DNA of 64,000 bases from an uncultured Candidatus Rokubacteria bacterium. GTDB taxonomy: Bacteria; Methylomirabilota; Methylomirabilia; Rokubacteriales; DASRDR01. The translations under genes were made by a program, and so were the position numbers. Below the pieces are notes generated by a model. It did no database searches. It was given only the letters and a program-made list of their open reading frames with translations, and was not told the DNA's origin. Location of the stretch: contig CAWDVE010000010.1 of assembly GCA_963805625.1 (NCBI GenBank), positions 64,001 to 128,000 of the forward strand, given 5' to 3'. Each line of letters opens with the position of its first letter. Position 1 is the first letter of the stretch. Positions 17,884 to 63,049 of the stretch are shown in pieces.

Positions 17884-18246
17884 AACGCCGCCGCCCCCGA
17901 AGGGACGCCCCCGCGGCGGATCAATAACAAAAAATTCTCACGAAACCAACTGACCGCCGATGCTCCTGGAGAGGCCATGAAGCGGATTGTCACAAATGGT
18001 AACGATTTTCTGGAAAAGACATGATATATCTCGCATCCGGATTTCGAGAATTGTGTATTCAGATATAGATCAGAAATTGGCAGCTCTCCATACCATAAAA
18101 GGAAACATACTGCCCCGCCGATTTGACCTGCGGCGGATCGGCAACAAAAAAATTCTCCCTGAACCTGCTGACCCGCCGTGCCTCGGAGAGGCCCTGAGGC
18201 GGGTGACATTCATAAATGTCGATGATTTTCTGGAAAAGGACATGAT
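17884..18246 (+). repeat. Hairpin-doublet repeat, two partly degenerate tandem units (~219-bp period)
   Basis: CGCCGCCGCCCCCGAAGGGACGCCCCCGCGGCGGATC at 17886 and CCCGCCGTGCCTCGGAGAGGCCCTGAGGCGGG at 18172; shared tail GATTTTCTGGAAAAG at 18005 and 18224. Confidence 0.85.
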
Positions 18247-18379
18247 CAAGGAGCTCGCATAGGAAGCTCGAGTCATAGTATTACGGGATAATCGGAAATT
18301 TTTCAGATTTCCATACTCTAAAAAGATAAACGCCTATCGCAGGGTTCCCGGTCGAATAATCAAACAGGATATCCCAGGA

Positions 18380-19234
18380 TTACCGGTTACACTGGTGATC
18401 CCAGCTTCCATCCGATGATTTTTTCGGGATTTTCGGTAACAGCCGTGCTGCAAGTGCGGCAAGGATAAAGAAACAGATGGTAACCAGGACAATTGCCCCC
18501 CCCGGTGCAAGGTCATACATGAATGACAACTGCAACCCGGCGACAACTGACAAGACGGCGACGCCGCATGCGGAGAACACGGTCTGTCTGAACGGCATCT
18601 TCAGTTGTATTGCTGCGGATGCCGGAATTACGATCAGGCTTGAAACCATGAGCACGCCAACGAGCCTCATCGCAACCACCACGGTTAAACCGGTCAGGAT
18701 CGTGAAAACAAGTTCCAGTGCCGACACCGGCAGGCCTGAGACTCTTGCAAACTCCGCATCGATGGTGATCCCGACCCATTCCTTCCAGAACAGCAATAAA
18801 ATGCTGATGACGGTAACCCCGAGGGCTGCGGCAAGGTAGAGGTCGGTCTGGTTTATGCCGAGAATTGTCCCGAAAAGGAAGGACAGGACATCAACAGCCA
18901 CATTATGCGTGATACTGATCATGATAATCCCGATGGCAAGCCCGGCTGCAAACATGATCGCAATTGCTGCATCCGAGGCCACTCGCAATCTATTGAGTGT
19001 GTGTATGCCCAGCGACCCGAGAACTACGCCGACAACCGCCGTGTATAAGGGGTAAATTCCCGTGAATAAACCCAGAGCAATCCCGCCAAAAGCCACATGA
19101 CTCAGCCCGTCTGCAATGAGGGAAAGCCTCCGGAGGACGAGGAATACCCCGAGGCTCGAACAGGTGACTGCGATGATCAGCCCCCCTATCAGTGCACGGA
19201 CACCAAACTGGTAGGATAAAAACTCAAGGACCAT
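18380..19234 (-). CDS. Zn/Mn-type metal ABC transporter permease (ZnuB/MntB family)
   Basis: GVFLVLRRLSLIADGLSHVAFGG motif; polytopic hydrophobic profile. Confidence 0.92.
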   Translation of the reverse strand: MVLEFLSYQFGVRALIGGLIIAVTCSSLGVFLVLRRLSLIADGLSHVAFGGIALGLFTGIYPLYTAVVGVVLGSLGIHTLNRLRVASDAAIAIMFAAGLAIGIIMISITHNVAVDVLSFLFGTILGINQTDLYLAAALGVTVISILLLFWKEWVGITIDAEFARVSGLPVSALELVFTILTGLTVVVAMRLVGVLMVSSLIVIPASAAIQLKMPFRQTVFSACGVAVLSVVAGLQLSFMYDLAPGGAIVLVTICFFILAALAARLLPKIPKKSSDGSWDHQCNR

Positions 19235-19243
19235 GGTCTGCTC

Positions 19244-20008
19244 TCAGGTAATTTTTCCTGCCGTTATCATCAGGTTCCACAGACCTTCTGCATTAAGACT
19301 CGCTGAGGGACCATCATAGATCACCTTTCTCTGCAGGAATATGACCCTTTCAACGTGAGCTGCGAGATCGGGCAGATCGTGCAGGATCATCAGGACCGTG
19401 ATCCGGTGCACTTTATTCAGATGGCTGACAAGGGTATAGAATTCCTGTTTGCTCTGTGCATCGATACCGTTTGTGGGTTCATCGAGCGCGATGATGTGTG
19501 GTCTGCCGACAAGAGCACGGGCAATCAGGGTTCTCTGCTGCTGTCCACCGGAGAGGTCGGAAAACTGGTCATACTGCACATGATCGAGACCTGCTTCTGC
19601 GATAGCGGTATCGACCGCCTCCCTGCTGTCGGAATTCATCCGTTTGAACAGCCCGATCTGGCCAAACGTTCCCATTTCGACGATCTCGCGGGCAGTTACC
19701 GGAAATTGTTCCTGCCTGATAACCGGGTTCTGGGGAACGTAGCCGATGCAGGGCCTGCAGGGAGTCATCCCTTCGCATTCATCGATATGGCAGGTAAATG
19801 AAACAGTGCCCTTATCGGGTTTCAGGAGGCCGACCATGATCTTCATGAGCGTGGATTTTCCCGAACCGTTTGGCCCGGCAATTCCCACGATCTCCTCCTG
19901 GCGAATCGAAAGAGATACATCTTCCAGTACTGGATTTGCACCGTAAGCAAACCAGACATTGTTCAGGGTCAGACAGACCTTTTCGCTTCCCGGAAGAATC
20001 ACTGGCAT
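19244..20008 (-). CDS. Metal ABC transporter ATP-binding subunit (ZnuC family)
   Basis: Walker A GPNGSGKST, signature LSGGQQQR, Walker B ALDEPT, H-loop ILHD. Confidence 0.93.
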   Translation of the reverse strand: MPVILPGSEKVCLTLNNVWFAYGANPVLEDVSLSIRQEEIVGIAGPNGSGKSTLMKIMVGLLKPDKGTVSFTCHIDECEGMTPCRPCIGYVPQNPVIRQEQFPVTAREIVEMGTFGQIGLFKRMNSDSREAVDTAIAEAGLDHVQYDQFSDLSGGQQQRTLIARALVGRPHIIALDEPTNGIDAQSKQEFYTLVSHLNKVHRITVLMILHDLPDLAAHVERVIFLQRKVIYDGPSASLNAEGLWNLMITAGKIT

Positions 20009-21002
20009 AGCATCGCTTTTTTCATTTCCTGCAGGTTAGTTTCCATGATCGCTACATAATCGGTATCGCCCTCTTTAAGGGGACCAGACGGGAGCACCTC
20101 CATGGTGGTGAAGGAATACACGGGAATATCGAGTTCTTCTGATATCGATTTACTCAGGTCTTCTGCTTCATCCGGCTCCACGAGAATACCCCTGACATTG
20201 TGTGCCTTCGCTTCTTCGATGATAGCAGACATCTGTTTTATTGACGGCTGAGTATCGGGGCCTGTCCCGGCAATCGGGATCTGGGTCAGGTTATACGTCG
20301 CTGCAATATAATCAAGGAAGGAGTGTGAGCTCAGGAATGTTCTGGTGGTACAGTTTGAAAACCCCGTCGTATAGTCGGAATCGAGCTGCTCCAGTCGTTT
20401 TTCAAATTCCACAGCATTATTCTGGTAATCGGACGCATTTTCCGGATCTATTTCAGATAACTCCCGGGCGACATGGGCTACGTAGTACTCTGGTAAGCTG
20501 TGGTGATAACCAGAGGTGCGGGTCCCGGGTCATATCCGGGAAGCCGGGGTATCGGTTTTTCATCTGATCGTATTCAGGTACCGATACAGCATCGGCAAAG
20601 GTCACGAGTTTTATATCAGGGTTTGACGAGGCTGCAAGATCGGCTGCCCAGGGTTCGAGAAACGGTCCGGCATAAAAGAAGATCCTTCCGTTTTTAAGCG
20701 CTACGGCATCGTTTGGTGTCGGTTCATATTCATGGGGATCTGCCCCGGGAGGAAGTATCTGGGTTATCGATAGGTGATCCCCGCCAATGGGTCCGACCAG
20801 GAGGGTGAACGGGCGAAATGACGTAATTACCTGAACCCTGCCACCCTGGCCGGGCTGTGCCGGTACTACTCGAGCCGGATACGCCGGGATCCGATGGGGA
20901 TACCGCTGGTGAGCTGGTCAGGCAACCGCTTCCTGCGATTATTGCAATAACCATTGCCATGGCCAGTATCGTCAGAATCGTTGTGTAATGTCTTTGTGTC
21001 AT
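19999..21002 (-). CDS. Metal ABC transporter substrate-binding lipoprotein (ZnuA/TroA family), apparently frameshifted
   Basis: Lipoprotein-like signal (..IIAGSGC) in ORF 20730-21011; DPHxYEP and DPHLWLSP-like segments in intermediate frames; C-terminal domain (SSHSFLDY..) in ORF 19999-20412. Confidence 0.8.
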
Positions 21003-21081
21003 CCGGATCAAAATCCCCCCGGCACTCCAGGTCTTTCCTGCAAATCTAATTCACAGGTTCTGCTTATAATAGTTGTGAGAA

Positions 21082-21756: not shown

Positions 21757-22284
21757 GTCTCTGTTGAAACGAGCATGAACTGGAGTTCGCACCCATACTG
21801 TGAAAATCATTAAACCATGTAATTTCAGGAGGATCCCCCGCCTCAGGGCCTCTCCGAGGCACGGCGGGGCAGTGCGGTGTTTGCAAATCATGTTTACAGA
21901 CACTGATCCGCCGCGGGGGCGCCCCGTCGGGGGCGGCGGGGTTCATCGCAAATAATTAAGGGATATAGACATTCCACAACGCACATCAGTTTAATTCAAT
22001 TTAATATGGAAATGTCCCGGTATTTCCATTCTGTGTGCCTGTGGCCGCAGGCATCGTGTCTATTTTCATGGGAAACCATAAGCAGTCCAACAAATTGCGA
22101 ATCACCTGGTGTTGGACGGGAAGTGCCTGTCCCCCCGAACCGCTCCTGTGCTTTGTGATGGTGTTGTATTACCTTCTCTGGAATTATTGCTCCAGAGGGG
22201 GATACAACAGCGGGGGTGGAGGCATTACGCAGCGTGGCCAAAAAAGAGTATTGAGAAAAATATTATGAGGATTTCGACAGAGCC
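21757..22284 (-). mobile_element. MITE-like element (hairpin-doublet core plus module C)
   Basis: Ends GTCTCTGTTGAAAC (21757) and ATTTCGACAGAGCC (22271-22284); internally homologous to the copies at 33.6, 40.8, 47.2 and 51.1 kb; carries an extra ~60-bp insert. Confidence 0.8.
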
Positions 22285-22302: not shown

Positions 22303-25300
22303 TTATACCGGCTTATAGCCGAGAGCCTGCACAAGGGCAATCATCTCTCCAACCTGCTCTTCCTGCTCTTTTGTCAGCCTGCGGTTTTTCTGGATTAAAC
22401 GCCCCATCCTGATAATCTGAAGACGCTGGTCATGGGAAAGTGATTCGGAATGACGGGCCCACTTGATCAGGCCCAGCCATTGCCTTCTGTTAAACGAGAA
22501 GGCAGGAGAGGGGAACATATCCCCATAGGTTTGGATTTCACGGACATCCTTATCGGGTTCTTCCACGCCTTCAGACTCATCAGAGACATCCCCTTCAGAT
22601 TCAAGATCTTCTGTTGCTGCTTCTGGATAGACGAGCCCGGGTGATACCTCCTCTTCGTGTATGACTGGCGAGGGTGAAGGCTCCTGGGCAGGCATTGACG
22701 CACGGTTCATCTTCTTCGAAAAGGTCATCTATGCCGGAAAAATTCTGATGGCGGGTGACCGTTCCCGGTGGTTTGTCTTCTGCTGAAGACACAGGAGAAA
22801 CAGGTTCATTTTCCGGAGCGGGAGGGGTTTGTTTTTCGGGGTGATACCAGCTCCAGGGAATGGGATGCAGACTCAATTTTCACGGGAAGAACCGGCTCTT
22901 TTGCAACAATTTCCTGCACCTCCTTTTTTTCTGACCCGGCCAGGTCTGCCTGCGAGAGGGATTGCTCCAGCCGCTGTCGTTCCAGGACGGCAGCCTCAAG
23001 ACGTTCGTCACTGGTCATGTGGTCCTCCCATTCCTCGGCAAGGGCAGTTCTTGCCTGTTCAAGCTCAAGGGTGAGGGCCCGGACCTTCTGCTCAGCCTTC
23101 ACCTTTTCCTCATTCAGGACGCTTACTTCTTCTTCCAGGGATTTTTGCAGGTTACAGACGGTTTCGAGATCTTTTTTAAGATTCTGGAACTTTTTTGCCC
23201 GGTCCTGTTCCTGGTTATCCCGCTCTTCGGTCAGTGCCTGAAGTTCCTCTTCCAGTTTTTTCTTCTCCTGGACTGCGATATTGGACTTTTCTTCAGCGAT
23301 CCGGCGGCTTTTTTGTTCGTCTTCAAGTCTTGCTTTGAGTGAATTCAGCTCATCAGAAGAGCTGCGGAGATCCTCTTCATAGCGCTGGCGGTTCTGCTCA
23401 ACTGCTTTCAGGTTTTCGTTTGAGGTCCGGTGAAGGCGCTGCTCAGTTTCAAACTCTCCCTTTAACCGTTCAAGTTCGCCAGTAAGCAGCCGGATCTGTT
23501 GTTCGTAGTGTTCCCTGCCGCTTGTAGCCAAAGCCATCTCCTTTGCATAAGCCATATTCTGCGTTTTTGCAGAAGCCAGATCGCGTTCGAGCATTCGCCG
23601 GCTTGCAAGCGTTTCGTCGAGATCGTGTTTTAATCGTATGAATGTCGTTTTGTACGACTCCATATCCGTTTTAACCTGCTCTTCAGTTTTTTCCTTTTCA
23701 AAGACCGCGGCGTTGAGGGTTTCCCTGAGTGACTGCAACTGGCTTTCTTTCTTTTCAAGCTCTTCTTTTACCTGACCCAGTTCGGTCGTCAGGGAACTCA
23801 CCTGTTGTCCGGTTTCCTCTTTTCCCCGGGACAGGAGGGCCAGTTCGTCTGCATATGTCCTGGCCTGAGCCTTCGCGGCGTCAAGATCCGCTTCAAGTGC
23901 CGAACGGGTCGCAGCAGCCTGCGTAAGAGCCTGGTTCAGATCTGCAACCGATGTATCGTACGAAACCTGGGTTGCTCTTACCTGTTCTTCGGTTTTTATC
24001 TTTTCCGCAACAGATTCCGCAAGATCCCGTTCCAGTGATTTTATCTGGTCCTCTTTGGTTTCGAGCGAGGAACTGACGGTCCTGTATTCCGCCTGAAGGG
24101 CGTCCAGTCTGCCCGGTAAGATTATTGATGGTGGACTGAAGGGATGATTCCCGTTGTTCATTTTCCTGCCTGAGTGATTCCAGCTGTTCCTGTCGGGAAA
24201 TCCGCCCGCTTCTCTCGGCCTCCAGTTCTTCTTTCAGCCGTGCCAGATCCGCAACCTTCAGCTGGATGGTCTGGTCAAGACCGGTGATTTTCTCGTTAAG
24301 TTCCTGTTCGGATTGTGCTCTGGCCTGCATCAATGCCCGGATTTCCTGCTCTGCAGCATTCAGCCGGGATTTGTCGGCCTCGAACGCAGATTTCAGGTTT
24401 TCGTGTTCAGGTATGAGTGCATTCAGGTTCTTTTCTGTCAGATCTTTTTGCGCACTCATCTCCGCGAGGGTGGTTTCCAGCGAGACCCGCCGGGTCTTTT
24501 CTTCTTCAAACGCAGATTTCAGGGTTTCATGTTCAGGTATGAGCGCATTCAGGTTCCTTTCTGCCAGATCTTTTTGTGTACTCATCTCCGCGAGGGTGGT
24601 TTCCAGCGAGACCCGCCGGGTCTTTTCCTCTTCAAACGCAGATTTCAGGGTTTCATGTTCAGGTATGAGTGCATTCAGGTTCCTTTCTGCCAGATCTTTT
24701 TGTGTGCTCATCTCCGCGAGGGTGGTCTCCAGCGAGATACAATGGGTTTTTTCTTCTTCGAACTCCTTCTGGACAGAGTCTAATCTCACTTTTGCGGTGT
24801 TGATCTTGGTTAACAACCCGGAGACCTGTTGGCGGAGAGCGTCAGTTTCCGAGAGGTGAAATGATTCGATCTCCTCTTTTTCCCGGAGCAGGGTACGGAT
24901 GTTTTCATCTTTTTTGGCAACGAGAGCCGTATTCTCTTCAAGTTTTCCGGTAAGAGTCCTGATTTCTGCTGTTTTTTGAGCGAGGGCCCGTTCCTTATCT
25001 GCACCTTCGCTGCTCAATGCGACAATTTTCTGATCCTTCTGCTTGACAGTAGCATTCAGGAGATCGATAACACAGGTATGTTCGGTGACACTTTCTTCGA
25101 GAGTTGCAGCAGATTCGGTCAGCCTTTGAATTTCCAGATTCAGTTCGGACAGCTCAGATGATTTGTTGACTGCAATCTCGAAAGAGGAGAGGAGAAACTC
25201 GAGGATTTTGCGCCGGCTGGCGGAGACGACATAGATCCGGTCGTCATGGTTGATTTTGAACTGCGTTTTGATAAGTTCGGGAGTCTGCCGCTCCACAGGT

Positions 25301-27670: not shown

Positions 27671-27771
27671 TCCCATCAATCTGGATGATTATTGGGATGG
27701 TTCGTGGTGATCAACGAAAAGAAACAAGGGATTTGTCTGGTATCAAGGCTTTTTCACGACAATATAGTTAT

Positions 27772-28089
27772 GATGAGGGTTCCCCGCCTCAGGGCCTCTC
27801 CGAGGCACGGCGGGGCAGAAGGGTGATTAGCAGAATTTTTCAGGTTTGTGAAAAACCATGAATCTAAATAAATCCCTATTGGGCTCATGAGATTGCTTCT
27901 CCAGTGAATCACCGGTAAAAACTGAAAAATTGTTCTTTTGTAAGAATGTGTATTTCTGCCCATTAGTATTTATGAGACTCAGTCGCCTCGGGGCTTTCCC
28001 GAGGCATGGCGATTCAGGGAAGTTTATAAGGAGTAACTCTCTCCCTGATCCGCCGCGGGGGCGTCCCTTCGGGGGCGGCGGCGTTCATC
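27772..28089 (-). repeat. Hairpin-doublet repeat: lone B hairpin (27772-27817) plus a full doublet (27981-28089)
   Basis: CCCCGCCTCAGGGCCTCTCCGAGGCACGGCGGGG at 27782; CTGATCCGCCGCGGGGGCGTCCCTTCGGGGGCGGCGGCGTTCATC at 28045. Confidence 0.9.
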
Positions 28090-28184
28090 CTTTTGGTATC
28101 GACATCTGACCGTTCCCCGAGATATCTGAATATTGTGATTTTTATTGTGGTTATTGCCGGCAGGGATCAAATTTGAGCCGGCTC

Positions 28185-30212: not shown

Positions 30213-30550
30213 TATTCAAATGTAAATTCTCCGGGATTTAAACCTTGGTATGCCTGGCTCATTTGAGTTTTCTCTTTCATCGATTGGCTGGAATTTTCTT
30301 CCTGACACCTGAGTGCAGAATATTCTCCAGATCTTTATACAGGCTGATAACTGATTCACTCGTTGACGGGTTATCTCGAAAATATCGGGCAATCTCGAAC
30401 AACGGGCTTTTTCCTCTCCCATTGCCGAATTATCCTCCGCACACCCTGATTCGATAATTTGGCTCATATCGTTATTTAGATGTGTTTTCACATGATTTCG
30501 GAACAGGACATTCTGGTCTCGCTTCCCGAAAATCTTAAGATAAAAGAGAG

Positions 30551-30665
30551 TCACCCGTTTCAAGGCCTCTCCGAGGCACGGCGGGTCAGAGAAGTGTCGA
30601 GATTTTTATTTTTTTAACTACCAGTCCGCCGCGGGGGCGTCCCTTCGGGGGCGGCGGCGTTCATC
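30551..30665 (-). repeat. Solo hairpin-doublet repeat
   Basis: GGCCTCTCCGAGGCACGGCGGGTCAG ... CCGCCGCGGGGGCGTCCCTTCGGGGGCGGCGGCGTTCATC. Confidence 0.9.
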
Positions 30666-30784
30666 GCGAATGTAAGAATTGGAATCAGAATGGAACCGGA
30701 CCTCAAGTTAAAAGGATCGTAATACAAACAAAAAAACGCCAATCCCGTACGGACCCCCTCTGAAAATGGAATGTATGGCGGGTT

Positions 30785-41926: not shown

Positions 41927-41947
41927 GAGCATAAGGAAGAATTTACG

Positions 41948-44381: not shown

Positions 44382-44417
44382 TTATATACTATTTTATGCT
44401 AACTTAAGGTAAATCAT
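44382..44417 (+). promoter_or_regulatory. TATA box plus candidate heat-shock operator upstream of the clpB unit
   Basis: TTATATAC-N9-CTAACTTAAGGTAAATCAT, a 17/19 match to the cdc48 site at identical spacing from the TATA box. Confidence 0.6.
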
Positions 44418-44418
44418 A

Positions 44419-47196: not shown

Positions 47197-47218
47197 TCCT
47201 GAACGGTTGGCTTTTTTT

Positions 47219-47671: not shown

Positions 47672-47899
47672 TGTTTTTTTGCATTTCTAGGTTCCGGGGA
47701 AAAACATACCAGTTCCCTCAGAAAGGGAGATTGACCGGTACATTATTTGGTAAGGCAACATTCCGGTTTTTCGTGCCGGTATAGTCTGCAGCAGGATAAT
47801 AATCCTGATAAACCTCTGGATCAAAGGACTACTCACGGAATAGAAATCCGGCCGGATAATCGTTGAACCCCTGTTGCAAAAAGAGGATGGTGATAAAAA

Positions 47900-48809
47900 A
47901 TGATGCTCAAAGATTTTCTTGTAAGTTCGGGAACAGATGAAAAACCTCGCAGAATTAATTCTCTTTTTGAGCAGGCAGGCTCAGCTGGTGAAGAAAGGAT
48001 TTCTCGCCACCTGCATGAAAAAATCACCCGATGAATGTACCAGGAATGTCTATGGCGAAGAGCAGATGGCGCTCGACAAATATGCCGACAAGATCTTCAT
48101 TTCCGGATTACAGGAAACACGTCTTGCCCGGTATGTCGCAACCGAAGAACAGGAGCAGGTTATCGAGATAGATCATCCGAAGAATAATTTCGGGGTCGTC
48201 ATCGATCCTCTCGACGGGTCCTCGCTCATTGACGTGAACCTCTGTGTAGGATCCATCATCGGCATCTATCCCGGGCACGTGCTTGAAAAGGGGGCAAAGA
48301 TGGTTGCTGCCCTGTATATCCTGTACGGGCCTCTCACTGTCCTGACATTAACCACGGGAAAGGGAGTGCATGAATTCGTCCTCGATGATTCCGGTGAGTT
48401 TGTTCTGAAGGAGAAAGATATCAGGATTCCTGAGGGGAAAATTTACGCCCCGGGTGCCCTCAGGAAGGATTACCTCCCTGCCCATGCAAAATGGATCGAA
48501 CATCTCGAACAGGCAGGATATAAGCTTCGCTTCAGCGGCTGTTTTGTTGCAGATGTACACCAGATCCTCCACAAAGGAGGAGTGTTCACCTATCCCGGGT
48601 TCAAAGGCAGGGAAAAAGGAAAACTGAGAATGTTATACGAGGCAAATCCCATGGGAATGATAATCCATGAAGCCGGGGGGGCAATCAGCAACGGGAGGGC
48701 TGATATCCTCACTATTATTCCTGAAACCATCGCCCAGATCACCCCGATCTATGTGGGTGGTAAAAAAGAGATACGGCTGATTGAAAAGTTTATGGCTGAC
48801 GGATTATAA
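47900..48809 (+). CDS. fbp: Class I fructose-1,6-bisphosphatase (probable extra A near 47940)
   Basis: [43 protein letters not shown] and [10 protein letters not shown] motifs. Confidence 0.92.
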
Positions 48810-48827
48810 GAAAGGAATGATACGTAT

Positions 48828-49979
48828 ATGAAAGAAAGAGATTTTGGTCCAATCCCCGGTTCAACGATTCTTCGGGGGCTCTCCGGTCAGAAAACAATTG
48901 TTATGGCAGCGAATGCGCGAATTGCCATGGTCGCCCCGGGGATTTTCAAAGCAGCAAAAGACACTGATTCTGCAGTATTTCTGGAGCTTGCCCGGTCTGA
49001 ATGCGACCTGAAAGGGGGTTACACCGGATTAACCCCGAAGGATTTTTCAGAAAAGATGAGAGAAGCAGCGAAGGCTGCACAATTTGACACCTGGGCCCTT
49101 CATGCAGATCATATCACCATAAAAACAGGAGACAGCAAAGAGATCGAAGGAACCAAACAGTTGATCGATGCCCAGATCAATGCAGGGTATACTTCCTTTG
49201 CCATCGATGCCTCTCATCTCTTTGATTTTGAGGGAAAGACGGTCAGGGAGGAGCTGGAGCCCAATATCCGTGCAACAACGGAGCTGGCCCTGTTTATCAA
49301 GAACAGGATGAAGGGAAAGGATTTCGGTCTTGAGGTGGAAGTGGGGGAGATCGGAAGAAAGGACGGGCACGGGCTGATCCTGACAAAGCCGGAAGAGGCA
49401 GTTGAATTCATCCGTGCCCTCAATGAAAATGAGATATATCCCCAGGTGCTTGCCATTGCCAACGGGAGTACCCATGGGCACACGTATGATGAAAACGGCA
49501 ACGTTGTCGAACAACTCTCCATCGATATCCCGCAGACCCGGGCAATCGCACAGGCCCTCAGGGATAACAACCTGCATGTTGGCATCGCCCAGCATGGTAT
49601 TACCGGTACTCCACGGGACCTGATCAACCTGCACTTTCCCAAGGGAGATATCATCAAGGGAAATGTCGGCACCTTCTGGCAGGACGTGGTGTTTACCACG
49701 CTGAAGGTGTATGAACCTGCGTTATACAAAGAAATCCAGGACTGGACCCTGGCAACATACCGGGCGGCAAATCCCGGGAAAAAAGACAGCCAGATATTTG
49801 ATGGCAACTGCAAGTTTGCCATAAAAGAATTTTTCAAGGACCTGTATGCTGTCGGTGAAGATACCGAGAAGGCTATCCAGGCGATGGCATATGCTGAGAG
49901 CCTTGTCTTTTTCAGGGCGTTCGGGTCATACGGTTCTGCTTCCCGGGTGAGAAAGTATCTGAAAAATAATACACCGTAA
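48828..49979 (+). CDS. fba: Class II fructose-bisphosphate aldolase
   Basis: HADH, GYTSFAIDASH, EVEVGEIG, AIANGSTHG, AQHG.TG and KGNVGT motifs. Confidence 0.9.
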   Translation: MKERDFGPIPGSTILRGLSGQKTIVMAANARIAMVAPGIFKAAKDTDSAVFLELARSECDLKGGYTGLTPKDFSEKMREAAKAAQFDTWALHADHITIKTGDSKEIEGTKQLIDAQINAGYTSFAIDASHLFDFEGKTVREELEPNIRATTELALFIKNRMKGKDFGLEVEVGEIGRKDGHGLILTKPEEAVEFIRALNENEIYPQVLAIANGSTHGHTYDENGNVVEQLSIDIPQTRAIAQALRDNNLHVGIAQHGITGTPRDLINLHFPKGDIIKGNVGTFWQDVVFTTLKVYEPALYKEIQDWTLATYRAANPGKKDSQIFDGNCKFAIKEFFKDLYAVGEDTEKAIQAMAYAESLVFFRAFGSYGSASRVRKYLKNNTP

Positions 49980-50019
49980 TATTTTAATATCACGGATATA
50001 TCTCATACTGTGAATTTTT

Positions 50020-51120
50020 ATGGCAAAGACCACGATTTCCGTCATAAAAGCTGATGTGGGAAGTTTCCCCGGCCATTCCCGCACGCACCCGAAGCTTCTG
50101 GAAAAAGCATCGAAGATGCTCAAGGACCAGGAAGGCAGGCTCCTTATCGATTCTTTCGTCACCCACTGCGGCGATGACCTCGAACTGATCATGACCCACA
50201 CCCATGGTGTTGACAATGAGAAGATTCACAAACTTGCCTGGGATGTCTTCATGGAATGCACGGCAATTGCAAAGAGCCTGAAACTCTATGGTGCCGGACA
50301 GGACATGCTCGCCGATGCGTTTGCGGGAAATGTCAAAGGAATGGGCCCCGGTGTTGCGGAGATGGAGTTTGAGGAACGGGGCAGCGATCCCGTCCTCGTT
50401 TTCATGGCAGACAAGACCGAGCCGGGGGCATGGAACTTTTTCCTGTACAAGATCTTTGCCGACCCGTTCAACACCGCAGGTCTGGTGATCGACCCGTCGA
50501 TGCACAGTGGTTTTATTTTCGAAGTGCACGACCTGTTCAAAAAGCGCCGTATCATGTTCCGGTGCCCGGAAGAGATATACAACCTGCTCGCCTACATCGG
50601 CGCACCCTCGCGCTACGTCATCAAGCACGTCTTTAAAAAGGATGGCACGATAGGTGCATCGACGAGTACCCAGCGCCTTGCCCTGCTCGCAGGGAGGTAT
50701 GTGGGTAAGGATGATCCTGTCATGATTGTCCGGTCCCAGAGCGGTTTTCCCGCTGTCGGAGAGGTCATCGAACCGTTCTGTACCCCCGTTCTTGTCGCAG
50801 GCTGGATGCGGGGATCCCACCACGGCCCGTTTATGCCGGTCGGATTGTGTGATGCCAACTGCACACGTTTCGACGGTCCGCCGCGAGTCATCTGCATGGG
50901 TTTCCAGGTATCGGACGGGAAACTCATCGGTCCGGCCGATATGTTTGATGATGTCGGGTTTGATCGGGTGCGGGCACGGTGCAATGAGATCGCTGATCTC
51001 ATCCGGGCCCAGGGACCGTTCGAACCCCACCGTCTCTCCCTCGGCGAGATGGAATATACCACCCTCCCGTCGGTAGAAAAAGATCTTGCGAAGCGCTGGG
51101 AACCGCTTCCCGAGACCTGA
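50020..51120 (+). CDS. Bifunctional fructose-1,6-bisphosphate aldolase/phosphatase (class V FBPase)
   Basis: IKADVG, CGDD, LYGAGQD, DKTEPGAWN, YVGKDDP (Schiff-base Lys), GWMRGSH, FDGPP and MEYTT motifs. Confidence 0.96.
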   Translation: MAKTTISVIKADVGSFPGHSRTHPKLLEKASKMLKDQEGRLLIDSFVTHCGDDLELIMTHTHGVDNEKIHKLAWDVFMECTAIAKSLKLYGAGQDMLADAFAGNVKGMGPGVAEMEFEERGSDPVLVFMADKTEPGAWNFFLYKIFADPFNTAGLVIDPSMHSGFIFEVHDLFKKRRIMFRCPEEIYNLLAYIGAPSRYVIKHVFKKDGTIGASTSTQRLALLAGRYVGKDDPVMIVRSQSGFPAVGEVIEPFCTPVLVAGWMRGSHHGPFMPVGLCDANCTRFDGPPRVICMGFQVSDGKLIGPADMFDDVGFDRVRARCNEIADLIRAQGPFEPHRLSLGEMEYTTLPSVEKDLAKRWEPLPET

Positions 51121-51126
51121 TTTTTC

Positions 51127-51588
51127 GGCTCTGTCAGAGATCCTCGACACTATTTTTCTCAACGCTCTTTTAGGGCTACGGCACGTAATGCCTCCGCTCC
51201 CGCCGCTGTGGCATCTTCCTGGAGCGATAACTCCAGAGAAGGTAATACAACACCATCGCAAAGTGCAGGGGCAGTTCGGGAGACAGGCACTGTCCCTCCG
51301 ATAACAAGGATTCGCAATTTGTTGAAATCTCAGGAATTTCCCATGAAATTAAATTAAACAGATATGGGTAATGGAATGTTTATCCCTCATAATTATTTGT
51401 GATGAACGCCGCCGCCCCCGAAGGGACGCCCCCGCGGCGGATCAGATCCAAAGAATTTCAAACACCTCCCTGCCCCGCCGTGCCTCGGAGAGGCCCTGAG
51501 GCGGGGAGCCCTCATAAAATTACAGGGTTTAATGATTTTCATGGTCTGGGTGAGAACCATCCCGTTCATGCCCGTTTCAACCGAGACC
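51127..51588 (+). mobile_element. MITE-like element flanked by a direct repeat
   Basis: GGCTCTGTCAGAGATCCT ... GTTTCAACCGAGACC; TGATTTTTC on both sides (51118-51126 and 51589-51597). Confidence 0.88.
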
Positions 51589-51742
51589 TGATTTTTCTCT
51601 TTCGTTTTCTTTTTCGTTCTGTTATCTCTCTTCATTTCCCCGGTTTGGACACCATACCTATCCCTGATATTCATATGAAATGTTTCTTTGAGATCATGCT
51701 CATGAGCAAACTTTAATTATCTTACATCCCAAATTAGGGCAG

Positions 51743-53259: not shown

Positions 53260-54940
53260 ATGATCTCTGTTTTGTTTGTCGACGATAATACCGATCTTTT
53301 CGGGCAGATCCGCTCATTCCTGGAAAAGGCCGGCGATATCAGGATTGACAACGCCCGTTCCATAAAACAGGCAATCGAGAAAATGAAAGGCCGTACGTAT
53401 GATGTAATCCTTTCCTACGAGCAGATACCGGAAGTGAATCGGCATTGAATTTGTCTCGGATATGAATGGCATTGAATTTTTAAAATATCTCAAATCAACG
53501 GGAAATACAACCCCGGTGATCCTGCTCTGCCGGAGGGGTTCCCAGAAGATTGCTGTCCAGGAAGTCATGATCGGCTCCGAGATCAGCATCCCGAAAAATG
53601 GCGATATACGCCCGAATCTTCCCGAACTGGTTACCCTTATCAAACAGACAATGCTGCGAAGGAAAGCAGAACGGGAAGTAAAAATGCAGAACGACCAGCT
53701 CGCCTCCATCCTGTCTGCAACTCCTCTGGGGATATTCCAGGTCCGAAACGAGGTCATCACGTGGGCAAATCCTCAGTTTGCCGGGATGCTCGGTTATGAA
53801 GAATCATATCCTGTCGGTAAAGAGATGTGCAGTTTCTTCAAAGCTCCTGAAGACTTTGAACGTGTATGCCATGAACTCCGGATTACCAAAACATCCCGGG
53901 GTTTTGGCATGGCCGAATGCAGCCTGGTGAAAAAAGATCATACCTCCCTTGTCTGCCAGCTCCAGGTGCAGGCAGTTGATCCCCGTGATATCGGCAAAGC
54001 CGGTACGTTCGTTGTTACGGATGTCTCAGAAAAAAGGAAGATAGCCGATGCATTGAAAGAGAGTGAGGCACGATACCGGGAAGTGCTCCAGAATACCCAG
54101 AGCATCATTATCCGGATGGACACCCAGGGTACCATCACCTTTTTCAACCGTTTTGCTCTCGAATTCTTCGATTATACCGGTGATGAGGTAATCGGCAAGA
54201 ATGTCGTTGGCACCATCGTTGCAGAGAGAGGGCGTTCCGGGCATGACCTGTCCATGATGGCAAACGATCTCGGGTTCAACGCGGAAGGATATGCTGTTAA
54301 CGTGAATGAGAACGTGCGCCGGAACGGCGATCGGGTCTGGATCGCGTGGATCAACAAGGCAATCCGCGATGAACAGGGCCATATTATCGAGATCCTCTGC
54401 ATCGGAAACGACATTACCGATCGGAAGCGGACCGGTGAGGTACGCATCAGTACCGATACATGGAAGGACATTGTTGTGGCGGATACGGATGTGAAAGAGG
54501 AAGTATTTGATGCGGTCTTTCACATCAGTACCGAAATATCGATTGAGGGCAGGGAAGGAAAATCTGTCGGGACGACGTTCCTCATCGGCGATGCGGATAA
54601 TGTCATGGCAAAATCACGGCAGATATCGCTCAACGCATTCGAGGGGCAGAAACCTGAGTCGCGTATGATCACCAACCAGGACATCAAGGAGAACATCAAG
54701 GAATTTGCCCAGCTCGACGGGGCGTTTGTTATTGACGGCACGGGTTATATACGGGCACAGAGCCGGTATATCACCGTCGATACCAGTAATGTTTCCCTTC
54801 CCAAGGGCATGGGTACCCGCCACAATTCTGTTGCCGCGATGACGCAGGTCACCACCGCGGTTGGTATTGTCGTGTCCCAGAGCGGCGGGGGGATTACCAT
54901 CTTTAAGAATGGACTGATCCTCAAGAAGATTACCCTGTGA
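53260..54940 (+). CDS. Pseudo-receiver - PAS - PAS - diadenylate cyclase (DisA_N/DAC) fusion; frameshift near 53440
   Basis: ISVLFVDD receiver start; two PAS/PAC blocks (ITWANPQFAGMLGY, ITFFNRFA..GDEVIGKN..GNDITDRKR); DAC motifs EGREGK.VGT, QLDGAF, GTRHNS and VSQSGG. Confidence 0.88.
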
Positions 54941-54983: not shown

Positions 54984-55290
54984 GGCTATAGCCCGTAGCC
55001 CACGATCTCCAAGGTATCGTTGATGAAAATTATTGTGAGGATTTTACACGTGAAATTTGCACCAATAATACCAGGATACATGCTTCCGGTGATAGATCTG
55101 GACTCCAATCACGGAAGTACCGATGGGATGACCTGCGCCGCACCACCGAAGGGACGCCCCCGCGGCGCTTCAATTACCTGCAAAACATCGCCCAGACCTC
55201 TCAAGAGACCTGTTACGGATGGCAGTCATACCTTCATATTTTTCATGGTTTGGGTGCGAACTCCAGTTCATGCCCGTTTCAACATGAGCC
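54984..55290 (+). mobile_element. Decayed MITE-like copy
   Basis: Module C end ATTGTGAGGATTT (55042), degenerate A hairpin CCGAAGGGACGCCCCCGCGGCG (55146), right end GGGTGCGAACTCCAGTTCATGCCCGTTTCAACATGAGCC. Confidence 0.7.
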
Positions 55291-57686: not shown

Positions 57687-57995
57687 AATCAGTAATTCCC
57701 GTGTAGGTATAGCCGGCTCTTACATTATAGGTTTTTTATTACGAACGCTGAAAAAAGCAACATTTACGGGTCTTATCCGGGTATCTCCTCACAAAAACGA
57801 AATGAGGGTGACACTATATCATCGATTTCCCAACGCCCTGTCATTTGCTCGCAGAAGTTACCTGCAAGGTTTTAATCGTTTTCGGCAGGTTTTTCAGAAA
57901 TTGCTCAATGCAGGGGGAAATTTCTTATCGGCACATCATATCTGATATTACCTATTGAGAGATGATTACCCGTCCCGAGAAAAATCATCGGATTT

Positions 57996-58110
57996 ACGAG
58001 GGTTCCCCGCCTCAGGGCCTCTCCGAGGCACGGCGGGGCAGGGAGGTGTTTGAAATTCTTTCGATCTGATCCGCCGCGGGGGCGTCCCTTCGGGGGCGGC
58101 GGCGTTCATC
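57996..58110 (-). repeat. Solo hairpin-doublet repeat
   Basis: CCCCGCCTCAGGGCCTCTCCGAGGCACGGCGGGGCAG-24 nt-CTGATCCGCCGCGGGGGCGTCCCTTCGGGGGCGGCGGCGTTCATC. Confidence 0.92.
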
Positions 58111-58298
58111 ATAAATCAAAATAGCGGGACACACATCCCAAGTCATTTAGTATTTATACGATTTTTCATGAATGAGGCACAATCTTTTTTATGAGAGTAA
58201 ATCGATTTCCAGGATAGTCGAGGGACACCGGGTCAGATAACTGCAGAAACGTTCTGAAATGGCTCACGAATAATATAGGATTTTTGCACCGGATAGAC

Positions 58299-59411
58299 TC
58301 ACACAGGAAAATACGGAGTATTGGTCTTCAGGCACATCGCCAGTTCCTCCATAATGGGAACAATCTCATGTTCTTTTTCGAAACGCCGGCTGATGAGTTC
58401 GGCAAGACTCCCCTGGGCGATTCGCTTGCTGATGATGGGGAGGTACTCGCGCTCATCAGGTGTTGCATGCTTCCATGCAGCATCATAGAGACGGTTCAGT
58501 TCAGGCCTGAGTTCTTCTGTACCTCTGTGTATCGCGCGATCGGTGAGTTCAAGCAGGGCAGTCTGGTCAGTTTCGAGCCGGAGCGAATGACACCTCAGCA
58601 GTGACCGCACAAAAGCACAGACTGCCATATCTGAACGGATACATTCCTGCTCGTCAAGCGCCTTGATCTCAAGACAGGTACGGGAAAAACGGATGATCAG
58701 CCCGCTCGAGTTCACCCACTCTTCGCAGAGAATATCTGCTCCCCTCAGGCGGAGTTCTGAAAAAACCTCTTCCTGGGTCGCACGATAATCATCGGCACAA
58801 CGGATCTTCTCAGGAATAATCCGGTTGCAGATGAGCGGGATCTCTTTCTGGTTCTCCCGGTAACAGATAAGCCGGTTATCAGCAATTCCCGTAAGTTTTC
58901 CTTCCACCATGGGAGAAGAAGCGGTGACTGCAATAAGGTAGGGGAGCAGGGAGCGGATCCGGTTATAGGTCGTCACCAGTTCCTGTTCGTGTGCATAGGA
59001 AAGATTGATCTGCAACGCCTGGATGTTCAGCCAGCCGTGCTGGTGGATGTTAAAAAGACGGTCATATGCATCATAGTATTCTCCCTCGTCATGATCCCAG
59101 ACTGCCGTGCGGTCAAGAGTAAGGGTCGGGTGCATGCCCAGTCCGAGCAGCCAGTAGCGTCCCTCGAAAATATGGTAAAATTTTCGTATCCCCTTCATGA
59201 GCTGGTTTTCAAGTGAGGCAAGGTTGTCAGCGGGGACACGGGGGATAATTTCGAGGACCGTTTTCTGGAGTTCCTTGCTGAGTTTCACATCACCAAAGAG
59301 GATCTCGCTTTCGGTACGTCCGCAGATGGTCCTGATAATCCGGTCGGAAACGGGCAGGGCATTGAACCGCCGGTCATTGATGGAGTATTCATGTTCGGTA
59401 CCGATTGTCAT
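58299..59411 (-). CDS. Glutamate--cysteine ligase family 2 (GCS2/YbdK-like) carboxylate-amine ligase
   Basis: TIGTEHEY, KELQKTVLE, GLGMHP, HGWLNIQALQINL, ASSP and LEIKALDEQ motifs. Confidence 0.85.
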   Translation of the reverse strand: MTIGTEHEYSINDRRFNALPVSDRIIRTICGRTESEILFGDVKLSKELQKTVLEIIPRVPADNLASLENQLMKGIRKFYHIFEGRYWLLGLGMHPTLTLDRTAVWDHDEGEYYDAYDRLFNIHQHGWLNIQALQINLSYAHEQELVTTYNRIRSLLPYLIAVTASSPMVEGKLTGIADNRLICYRENQKEIPLICNRIIPEKIRCADDYRATQEEVFSELRLRGADILCEEWVNSSGLIIRFSRTCLEIKALDEQECIRSDMAVCAFVRSLLRCHSLRLETDQTALLELTDRAIHRGTEELRPELNRLYDAAWKHATPDEREYLPIISKRIAQGSLAELISRRFEKEHEIVPIMEELAMCLKTNTPYFPV

Positions 59412-59914
59412 GAGACTGCACAATTCCTCCGGGGGACTTCTGATACCTTTTCTGTTTCCGGCTCATCAATGCGGCAGACGGCATCAATTTCTTCCTGCGT
59501 GAGATTGCTGACGAGGTGGGTGATGCTTTTCACCGCAAGGTCATACTGGAGCTGGTATGCTTCGGGGGTATTTTTCAGGAGCGTAACGAGCGGACAGATA
59601 CCCGGAAATTTCAGGTAAATTTCAATAACATCTCCTTTCACGTCAAACGTGAACGGCCCGGCCCGGCATGTTTCAGGTTTTATCGCATGAATGACGCATT
59701 TGCCATTCTCTGAAAGTATGCAGACACCATTTTCCCGTGCTTTAAGACGTTTATACCCGACATCCTCAAACAGGTCCGGGGAAACCCCGGCAGCAGTCAG
59801 TCTCCCGCAACAGGATCGCGATACCGGGGGATGTGCATCAACACAACAATGCCCCCCGCACCGCATGCAAATCTCTTCAGCATGGCCCAACCAGTCTTCA
59901 GTCAAAAAGATCAC
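59408..59914 (-). CDS. YkgJ-family cysteine-cluster (Zn/Fe-S) protein
   Basis: CMRCGGHCC ... C ... C.IH..KPETCR.GPF ... CP. Confidence 0.88.
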   Translation of the reverse strand: MIFLTEDWLGHAEEICMRCGGHCCVDAHPPVSRSCCGRLTAAGVSPDLFEDVGYKRLKARENGVCILSENGKCVIHAIKPETCRAGPFTFDVKGDVIEIYLKFPGICPLVTLLKNTPEAYQLQYDLAVKSITHLVSNLTQEEIDAVCRIDEPETEKVSEVPRRNCAVS

Positions 59915-60783
59915 GTCGTAAAAAGGTAAGAAACAATCTGTTCGAATACACGGGGGTAACAGTCATCCTCACCGCTCTCGATAGAGGGATTGTCATTCAC
60001 CTCAATAACGTACGCATCCCCGTTATTATTTTTTATGTCCACACCATACAGGCCCCTGCCTATCGCATTTGCTGCATCAATCCCGAGATCGATCACATGG
60101 GGCGGGACCTTGTCCGGAGAGACACTCTCCACCCCGCAGTAGACAAGATGACCATTCACCGATGCCTGGATCTTGAAGGTATCGGAGGGAATCGTGTACT
60201 TGCAGACATAGAGCAGATTCCCGCCAAGCACGCCCACGCGCCAGTCATACCTGCTCTCAATATACTGCTGCACGACGATCCAGTCCGAGAGCTTGATAAA
60301 CCTGCGGGCGACACGGAAAAATTCTGCGATATCGTTGACTTTTTCGACCCGGAGCGAGAAAGAAGTGGAAGGCTCCTTGACGATAAGGGGGGACCCGAGT
60401 TCATCGAACAGATGCGTTACTTCCTCGACAGTGAGATGGGTTTTTGATAAGAAAACGGTTTTTGGCAGGGAGATATTCTTTTCGATCAGGTGCGAGTACA
60501 TGTTGACCTTATCAGAGCAGATCCGGATTGAGCGGGGATCGTCGATGACCGGTATGCCGTGAAACTCTGCCATCCGTGCTGCCACGTAGGTAACATTCAA
60601 CGGGTCGGTACGGGCACGGATGAAGAGTGCATCCATTTTCGGAATTTTATGGATATCTACAGGAAATATGAAGTCCACGTCATGGCCCATCCCCTCGGCA
60701 ATGTCCCGGCAGCGGATCAGCGCATTGAGCTGCTCGGAATTTGAGAGGGTCTTCCGATCGACAAAGATGCCAAGCTGACTCAT
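59911..60783 (-). CDS. RimK-like ATP-grasp ligase
   Basis: DALFIRA, CSDKV, LIVKEP, QQYI..YDWRVGVL, YGVDIK and IEVNDNP motifs. Confidence 0.9.
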   Translation of the reverse strand: MSQLGIFVDRKTLSNSEQLNALIRCRDIAEGMGHDVDFIFPVDIHKIPKMDALFIRARTDPLNVTYVAARMAEFHGIPVIDDPRSIRICSDKVNMYSHLIEKNISLPKTVFLSKTHLTVEEVTHLFDELGSPLIVKEPSTSFSLRVEKVNDIAEFFRVARRFIKLSDWIVVQQYIESRYDWRVGVLGGNLLYVCKYTIPSDTFKIQASVNGHLVYCGVESVSPDKVPPHVIDLGIDAANAIGRGLYGVDIKNNNGDAYVIEVNDNPSIESGEDDCYPRVFEQIVSYLFTT

Positions 60784-61637
60784 AGGAATTCCTGGTTGGA
60801 GAGATATGCCGCGAGCAGGGTGCGTTCATCAGCGGTAAGCTGGGAGTACCGGGTAGGAGCAAGAGATGACAGCAGAAGATGTTCACCGGTTTTTACCAAC
60901 ACCATGGTGACAAGGGGAATCCGGAAACATTCGTACACCTTCTCTGCAATAGTTGCGAAAGGGGACAGGGATGTGGCAGTTTTTCCAAAAATTCCCACAC
61001 AGGAATGAATCGTCGCCCCGTCCCCCAGTTTCTGGTAGCAGAAGGGATATTTGCCGATGTTGGTGATGTGTTTTATCACTTCTTTTGCCTTTTCGTTGTC
61101 GTGCACCTCAAAGAAATCGGATGTCGTGGCAAAATAATTCAGTCCATACAAGAGTGCAGGCAGGGGGACATACCCCTGGGATATCCCCCATTCACAGACC
61201 GGGATACCCCCCTGTTTTGCCCGCTCAAGGCAGATGGGTACAACATACGCATCGAGAATCGCACGGCTGGAAGGCCTGACCTTTTTTCCTTCCAGTTCAT
61301 AGCTCAGAATGGTGTAATAGGTCTCGGTTTTATACGAGTAATTTTCGCTGACAATATGGCAGGTATTATTGCGTCTGACACAATAGTGCGAGTCTTTTAT
61401 GATATTCTGCTCACGCTTTGCACTTGCCTTAACCGGTGTTTTACGTAAAGATGGCACATCGTCACACAATTCCGGCTCAGACCCTGTGGCGGGAACCAGG
61501 GGCAGTTCGGAATCAGATACTGTACTGGCATCTTTTGCGTGAGCTGTATCAGATCCTCTGGGACTCATCGGATCACCAGCCCGTCCTGCATCAGCCAGTC
61601 TGGAGTCCGCACAAAAATCCTCTGATACCGGGCACAT
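60780..61637 (-). CDS. RimK-like ATP-grasp N-terminal (RLAN) domain protein with low-complexity N-terminus; may extend to 61789
   Basis: NYSYKTETYYTILSYELEGKKVRPS resembles the RLAN motif; the stop overlaps the ATP-grasp start. Confidence 0.65.
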   Translation of the reverse strand: MCPVSEDFCADSRLADAGRAGDPMSPRGSDTAHAKDASTVSDSELPLVPATGSEPELCDDVPSLRKTPVKASAKREQNIIKDSHYCVRRNNTCHIVSENYSYKTETYYTILSYELEGKKVRPSSRAILDAYVVPICLERAKQGGIPVCEWGISQGYVPLPALLYGLNYFATTSDFFEVHDNEKAKEVIKHITNIGKYPFCYQKLGDGATIHSCVGIFGKTATSLSPFATIAEKVYECFRIPLVTMVLVKTGEHLLLSSLAPTRYSQLTADERTLLAAYLSNQEFL

Positions 61638-62008
61638 ACCGATGGTGTATCGGGACAGGGTACAACAGATGGATGTATCGTATGCTCCCCGGTATCTGCA
61701 CCTGAGATACAGGGCGTCGTAAAAAAACAGGAAGGGGACCGACTATGGGCCTCTTCATCATCGTCATCGTTTTCAAGGCACTCGTTCATGTTCAACACTA
61801 ATCCAATACCAGTCCATTGGATTATCGTTGATAGCTATAAGCATCGATCTTTAAAGTAGTTTGTAGGGATCACGTGCAAAAATCACTCTGGCTCATATCA
61901 GCGGTTTGAGCGGGTATACGAGGGAAATTCAAAGTATCCGGAATGCTGGAGCGGTTCCACGCCACAAAAAGTAAAGTTGATATTATTATATCACTATCAG
62001 TAATCACC

Positions 62009-62563
62009 ATGCATATTCCTACGCCCGAAGAACTCCGGGCACGCCGTGAAGCCCTTGGCATGAAACAGACAGAACTTGCAAAACGTGCAGGTATCAGTCA
62101 GTCAATGGTGGCACGGATCGAGGCGGGAAATGTAGACCCCAGGGTAAGTACGTTATCCAAAATCATTGTTGTCCTGAACAGTGCAGAACCCAGAAAAATC
62201 CGGGCAATGCAGATTATGCACACTCCTGTCCTGTCCGTCCAGCCCCAGGATGCGATAACACGTGCGGTTGAGATCTTTGAAAAGAATAATATCTCACAAT
62301 TACCCGTCATCGAAAGGGGTGTGCCGGTCGGCTGCATCTCTGAAACGGTCATCGTCAAGGCCATCGAACAGCAACGGTTGCACAAGACCCACCTTTTTGT
62401 TGTCCGCGATTTTATGGAACCCGGGTTTCCAACCGTCCCTCCGGACATGGATGTCGAAACGGTCATCAACATCCTGCAGCAGAACCATGCCGTGCTGGTG
62501 ATCGAAGGCGGGATGGTCAGGGGTGTAATAACCAAGCATGATCTCATCTCACTGATTGTCTAG
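62009..62563 (+). CDS. XRE-HTH + tandem CBS domain transcriptional regulator
   Basis: LRARREALGMKQTELAKRAGISQSMVARIEAG.VDPR, then ISQLPV and GVITKHDL. Confidence 0.92.
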   Translation: MHIPTPEELRARREALGMKQTELAKRAGISQSMVARIEAGNVDPRVSTLSKIIVVLNSAEPRKIRAMQIMHTPVLSVQPQDAITRAVEIFEKNNISQLPVIERGVPVGCISETVIVKAIEQQRLHKTHLFVVRDFMEPGFPTVPPDMDVETVINILQQNHAVLVIEGGMVRGVITKHDLISLIV

Positions 62564-62735
62564 GCATAGGGGAGACAGAGGGGATCGAAAAACCTGTTCT
62601 CTTTTTCCATGGTTCGGGAAAGTCTACGTTTCTGAGAATCCTGTCTTTTAAGATTATCGTACCGGTGATATTGCAGTAACAACTAAACGATAGTTCTCCA
62701 GTGAGAATTGGAATTCCTGTCATACATTCATATTT

Positions 62736-63049
62736 ATGAGGGTTCCCCGCCTCAGGGCCTCTCCGAGGCACGGCGGGGCAGGGAGGTTTTCAGAGATTAT
62801 CGGAAACTTACCGATTTTGTTGAATGATCCCATGCAGGAACGTCCCTTCGGAAGCAGCGGCGTTCATCACTCTCTGTTTCAAAAACAATTCCTGAACGGA
62901 AAATTTCATAAAAATTTATGAGGATCACCCGCCTCAGGGCCTTTCCGAGGGCGCTGCGGGTCAGAGGTTTTTTAGAGTCTGTCAAAATGTACCAACTTTG
63001 TTAACTGATCCGCCGCGGGGGCGTCCCTTCGGGGGCGGCGGCGTTCATC
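62736..63049 (-). repeat. Two tandem hairpin-doublet repeats (62736-62868 and 62918-63049)
   Basis: First unit has a perfect B and a degenerate A; second has a degenerate B and a perfect A. Confidence 0.88.

Follow-up and report, generated by a model that had tools for sequence, protein, structure and literature searches.

The window analyzed here is a 64,000-nt stretch of a single contig (C10:64001-128000 of assembly G000). Between positions 17876 and 63053 it carries, at 11 intergenic loci, a doublet of GC-rich hairpins, A and B. This doublet is very probably the interior of non-autonomous, IS5-type miniature transposable elements with inverted repeats (MITEs) of Methanoregula, which would be moved in trans by an IS5 DDE transposase. 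Searching with profiles made from the copies locates 12 A and 13 B hairpins, with roughly one locus every 7 kb; one further decayed A, near ~18100, was recognized by eye. An earlier reading made from the letters alone (the sequence-only reading) had counted about 13 copies of the core at 11 loci and had given the hairpin sequences, the A-spacer-B order, and the common outer ends. These are as it described them, and the searches confirm its picture of a dispersed, inverted pair of related hairpins.

The ends common to A and B read TTRYGAKG...CCGCC on either strand, and each hairpin has a foot tag, GATG or GAGG, 3-5 nt ahead of the stem. The spacer, measured between profile envelopes in 184 doublets, is mostly 19-30 nt long, with a range of 3-56.

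Source and distribution

Across the 7.27-Mb assembly there are 25 A and 23 B matches, all in C10:1-146 kb and none elsewhere. The assembly as a whole is ~70% GC, but C10 from position 1 to ~143.4 kb is ~50% GC; at C10:~143100-143500 (L001:15100-15500), within a single contig, a Methanoregula-like aromatic amino acid operon (~50-60% GC) gives way sharply to ~70% GC sequence. The named members of protein clusters from the low-GC segment are Methanoregula, the repeat is confined almost wholly to Methanoregulaceae and Methanomicrobiales records, and the contamination of the assembly is given as 6.26%. The ~143-kb segment is therefore probably a mis-joined contaminant, and the window probably not from the organism under which the assembly is filed; the archaeal host proposed by the sequence-only reading agrees with its Methanoregula-like content. 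Because of this likely contaminant status, comparisons throughout are with relatives of G001, a Methanoregulaceae chromosome. The repeat is also carried by two metagenome-assembled genomes (MAGs) labeled Dehalococcoidia (L009) and Nitrospirota (L071), where contamination of a similar sort may be involved.

Hairpin B, allowing up to 2 mismatches, occurs in 79 of 108 genus genomes, at 0 to 135 copies per genome, and is missing from the other 29; a reversed-pattern control gave no match in the 108. A doublet query found matches in 79 of 301 genomes of the order. Among viral contigs there were none to hairpin A and three to a pattern for the terminal repeat described below. Rfam has no family matching the repeat at gathering score (no match at all at 47200-47760; five weak ones, far below gathering, at 62560-63170).

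All of 78 loci examined fall outside predicted open reading frames (ORFs). Convergent gaps are enriched (39 of 78 loci, vs. 95 of 470 among all gaps) and divergent ones depleted (7 of 78, vs. 115 of 470). Strand polarity is absent from the larger, independent set (36 same, 31 opposite), although a smaller, non-independent set gave 22 vs. 10; the 3′ untranslated-region RNA role suggested by the sequence-only reading thus gets no support from polarity. In three of four RNA runs, short hairpin pieces with unlike flanks were found among the contigs covered, only those with shares under 0.1, which by itself shows neither strand nor transcription.

Terminal repeats, target duplications, and empty sites

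Comparison of filled with empty orthologous sites in relatives revealed an element larger than the doublet. Elements containing A and B are bounded by a terminal inverted repeat (TIR), GGCTCTGT(A/T)GAAA(C/T), in inverted orientation. In the window genome together with 834 kb of the close relative G351, a TIR lies within 420 nt of the doublet at 53 of 79 loci, with both ends present at 23, against a null of 5.7% per random 400-nt window. Twenty-eight TIR-bounded A/B elements, taken without a duplication filter, are 253-588 bp long. Flanks match best over 8 bp (0.80; the values for 7 and 9 bp are 0.53 and 0.44), and 19 of the 28 agree at 7-8 of 8 positions, compared with 2% for mixed flanks. Target sites are 76% A/T: insertions are in A/T-rich tracts, mostly behind genes. 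The 8-bp duplication is like that of the ISH1 subgroup of the IS5 family.

The sequence-only reading had overlooked the TIRs, the duplicated target sites, and the further modules that lie 60-300 bp beyond the core. It had named a match to an insertion sequence (IS) end or a MITE as telling against its own interpretation, and that is what is found here, the doublet lying within the ends of an IS5-type MITE.

At least one IS5-type end is kept at six of the 11 window loci, where the doublet lies inside a 450-530-bp element. The composite MITE at 40845-41294 (plus strand, 450 bp) is full length: 14-bp TIRs, GGCTCTGTTGAAAC at both ends, and a target duplication, AATTTTTT/AATTTTAT, enclose a reversed module X, A (41106-41152), B (41181-41229), and module C. 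G351 has nearly identical ends here, around other modules. Another full-length composite, 528 bp on the minus strand at 21757-22284, consists of left TIR, X, A (21903-21951), B (21823-21873), C, and right TIR. Its 8-bp flanks agree at 5 of 8 positions, and the site has other module content in G351 and is empty in G149, G374, and G404.

On the plus strand behind clpB is a 453-bp composite (47219-47671) made up of a decayed left TIR, X, A (47478-47526), B (47555-47605), C, and right TIR; its flanks agree at 6 of 8 positions, and the clpB-fbp site is empty in G351 and G367. A 461-bp composite (51127-51587, plus strand: X, A 51397-51445, B 51469-51519, C) follows the fructose 1,6-bisphosphate (FBP) aldolase/phosphatase gene. 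It has an exact 17-bp direct repeat at 51110-51126 and 51581-51597, which exceeds the usual 8 bp and overlaps the right end; G351 has the element, while the site is empty in G149, G374, and G404. At 33604-33996 (plus strand) the left end is missing from a composite of X, A (33801-33850), B (33879-33929), C, and right TIR (33983-33996); both G351 and G367 carry a stand-alone X MITE with the same end point. The variant unit at 55120-55290, also on the plus strand, has an A-type hairpin (55120-55173), then module D, which is a diverged second hairpin, then C and right TIR.

The remaining loci have no recognizable IS5 ends. Two are pairs of tandem cores: 17876-18217 on the plus strand (A 17876-17924, decayed B 17950-17997, decayed A ~18100-18140, B 18167-18217), which is the same locus in G351 and is absent in G149 and G374; and 62732-63053 on the minus strand between convergent genes (A 63005-63053, partly decayed B 62914-62965, decayed A 62825-62871, B 62732-62782). 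A core is on site at the latter in G351, G367, G374, and G404 and absent in G149, and the G351 spacer holds a 221-bp X MITE. Tandem cores at 27769-28093 (minus strand: A 28045-28093, decayed B 27968-28022, B 27769-27819) are common to G351, with the intact hairpins identical at 66 of 66 positions. Of two single cores, both on the minus strand, that at 30540-30669 corresponds in G351 to a stretch which, from hairpin A onward, resembles a young TIR-bearing copy. The other, at 57992-58114 (A 58066-58114, B 57992-58042), is common to G351, where A has a variant loop seen at six other G351 loci, and its site is empty in G149 and G374.

A likely autonomous IS5-family partner

An ORF near one hairpin (L166) encodes an IS5-family transposase (NCBIfam NF033579 at 195.9 bits, cut-off 140, with a PF01609 match); the cognate transposase is ~310 aa long. 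The family occurs in 78 of the 108 genus genomes, with 51 over the cut-off; G351 has a homologue at 85%, with a TIR. Among 31 transposase loci, twelve gave elements that are 997-1014 bp long, end as the MITEs do, and have duplications matching at 7-8 of 8 positions (11 at 8/8), in a catalogue filtered at a 6-of-8 duplication match. A de novo TIR search recovered true ends at only four of the loci, and the matrix search at 12. The MITEs thus share the 14-bp ends and 8-bp duplication of these IS5-family insertion sequences, which have a transposase gene and no A or B inside; the MITEs themselves have no transposase gene. Clustering of ORFs near 80 hairpin loci revealed no recurrent mobile gene.

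Exchangeable modules

The family is assembled from exchangeable ~200-250-bp modules. The same ends enclose stand-alone X (206-224 bp) and M1 (221-272 bp) elements and a 253-bp TIR-A-B-C-TIR monomer with an 8/8 duplication, and also fusions (420-670 bp); dimers of 410-560 bp and trimers of ~660 bp are seen. Modules meet at a junction, RTTTC-CCAT-GAAAAT, and X occurs in either orientation. Four window sites (21.8, 33.8, 41.1, and 55.1 kb) hold other modules at about the same place in G351, and deletions and crossovers have occurred at the shared CCGCC arms (L108, L079, L091, L346). More GC-rich hairpin modules are met repeatedly in various genomes: M1, enclosed by the same IS5 ends, and a different partner hairpin that follows A (L040:4200-4290, L198, L136, L081, L206; L291, L298, L337, L402).

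In other Methanoregulaceae (L159, L161, L164, L167), a second MITE subfamily of ~190-260 bp has GGCTCTTCGC ends and contains a variant A without B. An 8-bp duplication matching at 7-8 of 8 positions is seen in 4 of 21 copies, and no autonomous partner was found in the four loci. Hairpin A therefore has a MITE history beyond the IS5-ended subfamily. A candidate inner transposon with CCATGAAAAT ends was rejected: the motif is present on both sides, but only 4 of 184 doublets have it in the absence of module C, and no duplication was seen at these.

Copies without ends

Of the 79 loci in the window genome and G351, 26 are end-less, tandem arrays included. Inner flank motifs are kept at 9 and 7 of these 26 (null 3.75%). 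Six end-less loci that were compared are all intact in both genomes, while eight of the nine other anchored loci are empty or reshuffled in G351; for each of the four window loci among the six, one or more of the more distant genomes has an empty site. The pattern suggests that end-less copies inserted long ago, no longer move, and have lost their A/T-rich ends and linkers to decay.

Conservation of the hairpins

Of 21 loci, 15 had an anchored counterpart position in G351; eight of these, empty or reshuffled, were excluded, leaving seven for comparison. The hairpins, intact in the window genome, are identical at 451 of 462 positions (97.6%), vs. 601 of 840 (71.5%) in the flanks of the same loci and 87.4% at four-fold sites of 13 genes. 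The excess is significant (P = 8e-5) even against half the four-fold divergence, and it bears out the sequence-only reading's observation that the hairpins are far better kept than spacers and flanks. Pairwise identities agree: in TIR-bearing copies 0.84 for the inner hairpins vs. 0.77 for the TIRs, and in end-less copies 0.90-0.91 for the hairpins vs. 0.46-0.48 for the flanks.

For conservation and pair counts, each hairpin was scored in sets chosen without regard to it. Conservation is equal at paired and unpaired positions, 93-97%. Double changes in the outer stems and the B inner stem are mostly Watson-Crick (27 of 28, 25 of 35, and 20 of 22), and B pair 17-23 has three Watson-Crick forms, T-A, C-G, and G-C. 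The covariation for which the sequence-only reading had proposed a test is thus found in part: the outer stems and the B inner stem show some compensatory change, but the short inner stem it drew for A shows none. As the compensatory changes are confined to four pairs, they represent few events. G-U wobbles are even between strands in A (26 vs. 26) and in B mildly favor the reverse one (62 vs. 40). The stable cGNAg loop and, on the other strand of A, the cUUCGg tetraloop to which that reading drew attention are not conserved: the A loop is GNA in only 80 of 229 copies and GAC in 89, and the loop argument does not hold for the majority of A copies. Another structure, with C/D boxes and a k-turn joining A to B, was considered and rejected, since 22 of 160 copies have G at position A25, which is thus variable, and most have no C-box U.

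The sequences contain direct signs of exchange restricted to the hairpin, as expected of gene conversion; signs of structural selection are weaker. A four-change A loop variant, GCACCAAAAAGGGACG, is found at seven G351 loci with three flank types. One of them is the 58.0-kb site, an old one, at which A has its standard form in the window genome. Similarly, a compensated B variant is present at seven of nine G387 loci with unrelated flanks. Gene conversion between paralogues has been reported for Methanomicrobiales (PMC4632066).

Comparison with known systems

The sequence-only reading took the doublets for an archaeal system of REPINs or bacterial interspersed mosaic elements (BIMEs), that is, doublets of repetitive extragenic palindromes (REPs), moved as single-stranded DNA by a RAYT-like HUH nuclease. 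The resemblance is considerable. REPINs and BIMEs are likewise inverted doublets of conserved palindromes with a variable spacer, tandem arrays, and compensatory changes (PMC3116915); the doublets here are inverted heterodimers whose outer tag (GATG/GAGG) is conserved and which favor convergent gaps; and REP families without a dedicated transposase exist (PMC3733652). One argument against it is the near absence of the enzymes from 151 Methanoregulaceae genomes, a sample of incomplete MAGs, when searched with Y1, RAYT, and IS91 profiles. Y1_Tnp (PF01797) matches in one genome (L127, G139; a 342-aa frame), with no hairpin within 1.5 kb, and IS91 Y2 (PF04986) in one other (L169, G150). Because PF01797 covers RAYTs only in part (PMC6006769), the result with the RAYT model NF047646 (REP_Tyr_transpos) matters: none of the 151 exceeds its cut-off, the same Y1 gene matching below it. 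The canonical REP tag at the hairpin foot, 5′ GT[AG]G (PMC6006769), is also missing here; in place of RAYT gene and tag there are the TIR and 8-bp duplication of DDE elements, which account for mobility. The layout is REPIN-like, but where it can be tested the element behaves as an IS5-associated MITE, and movement by an HUH nuclease seems extremely improbable.

IS5-associated MITEs of 140-252 bp are known from Methanosarcina and Methanococcoides (Kamoun et al., 2013, PMC3852290, Table 4), and Sulfolobus MITEs SM1-SM4 are named in PMC10969869. The elements described in the relevant passages of these two papers are, like those here, non-coding, intergenic, under ~500 bp, flanked by direct repeats, and present in tens of copies, and only in the terminal repeats do they resemble the autonomous partner; Methanoregula is not among the hosts listed in those passages. 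Unlike them, the present family has several modules sharing one TIR, which fuse in twos and threes and are not the same in relatives at a given site, and its inner hairpins are better kept than its TIRs. Coxiella burnetii QMITE2 is a MITE whose truncated copies, lacking TIRs and direct repeats, resemble REPs (PMC10969869). This likeness is one of description only: QMITE2 is bacterial, and the passage concerned does not describe hairpin conservation. No description of the family in Methanoregula, nor of matching ISH1-type MITEs, was found in the literature searched, although ISfinder or supplementary element lists may already hold it.

Origin and upkeep of the doublet

The ends, target duplications, empty orthologous sites, and cognate autonomous elements suggest a history in which an IS5 DDE transposase would act in trans, making an 8-bp staggered cut in A/T-rich tracts. 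Modules would then fuse and swap through recombination between copies, and in old copies the ends would decay while the hairpins stay. Upkeep of the hairpins would be due mainly to ectopic gene conversion across tens to more than 100 copies, for which the 32-34-bp GC-rich stretches would be the last remaining homology; some selection on the folded structure, acting on the element or on the host, is probably added.

Several observations weigh against this account. The training set of the TIR weight matrix was 18 elements, chosen by hand with an eye to their duplications, and it includes some of the 28 tested. Beyond the close relatives of the window genome, most doublets lack a TIR: this is so at 58 of the 79 A-B loci taken from metagenomes, where flanks are short in some cases, and over the whole set at 111 of 176; right-arm remnants are detectable in 37 and left-arm remnants in 44 of the 111 doublets without a nearby right TIR, and since about two thirds of these keep no right-arm remnant, their origin as MITEs is something we infer. 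The autonomous elements contain neither A nor B and so do not account for the origin of the core. No transposase was found in the 143-kb segment of the window organism among 45 + 60 ORFs searched against Pfam and NCBIfam, a scan that left out the tetratricopeptide repeat (TPR) region and a few ORFs crossing locus borders. Nor does the segment contain a homologue of the IS5 transposase. Finally, G051 has a lone, near-perfect, end-less doublet, with no second A or B within 3 mismatches, and because of it conversion cannot be the whole story.

Some of these points would sit well with a doublet that is a separate minimal mobile unit, served by another enzyme and merely captured by the IS5 MITE. 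Many end-less copies have perfect hairpins in unrelated flanks, 2-4 units can stand in tandem, such arrays lacking ends in both the window genome and G351, and a variant of A recurs in the ~190-bp GGCTCTTCGC-ended MITEs, paired with other second hairpins. Against it, the end-less loci are static between close relatives; the extra DNA relative to empty sites is mostly 300-550 bp rather than 125 bp; and no recurrent mobile gene was found near the 80 loci. Such a unit is quite unlikely.

A domesticated structure deserves more consideration, though it too is on balance unlikely. Hairpins behind genes might be of use to the host, either as an RNA fold or as DNA bound by protein, for example as a barrier to 3′-5′ decay or to read-through between convergent genes, and be kept by host selection instead of conversion; this is compatible with a MITE origin. 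Hairpin identity well above that of four-fold sites and flanks, the Watson-Crick double changes with three forms of B pair 17-23, unpaired positions as conserved as paired ones (96%), the G051 copy, and the bias toward convergent and away from divergent gaps could all be read in this way. Against it, there is no strand polarity, and wobbles are strand-neutral in A with only a mild lean in B; relatives have empty sites, and no B is seen in 29 of 108 genomes; compensatory changes are few; and the same gap bias is expected from A/T-rich targets. An intermediate and rather speculative idea, unlikely as it stands, is an archaeal REP-like element in the making, in which hairpins spread by IS5 MITEs would have been domesticated, recognized by a factor of the host or encoded by the element that reads both their sequence and their structure, and selected after their ends were lost. 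Over-conserved folded cores may also be a general functional part of IS5-type MITEs, not yet described as such.

As a MITE family, the one proposed here is ordinary, though abundant. It should be of use for Methanoregula annotation and strain-typing, and it is a warning that REP-like doublets can be MITE interiors. It also raises a puzzle that could be tested in a methanogen: 32-34-bp hairpins outlast the ends that the transposase requires.

Neighboring genes

Besides the repeat loci, the window contains a very long repeat-protein region (1-15660, minus strand) with a 102-bp periodicity, TPR-like as judged by the period, with four tandem copies of 816/817 bp and broken into many ORFs. The genes cdc48, clpB, and znuA (41915-47196, 19999-21011) each appear to be split across adjacent ORFs; taken with the 816/817-bp spacing, the splits suggest assembly errors in the form of single-base indels, by which a few repeat copies may be affected. 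A tRNA gene at 16045-16118 (minus strand) is the only Rfam match in the window, and about three copies of a 126-bp tandem repeat lie within a response-regulator gene (24363-24763).

Genes for a class I fructose-1,6-bisphosphatase, a class II aldolase-like protein, and a bifunctional FBP aldolase/phosphatase stand side by side at 47937-51120, a block with matches in 102 of the 108 genus genomes, many over its full length. A PAS-domain protein with a C-terminal DAC (diadenylate cyclase-type) domain is encoded at 53462-54940, and an operon at 58299-61637 encodes a GCS2-family ligase, a CxxCxxCC protein, a RimK-like ATP-grasp protein, and an RLAN-domain protein.

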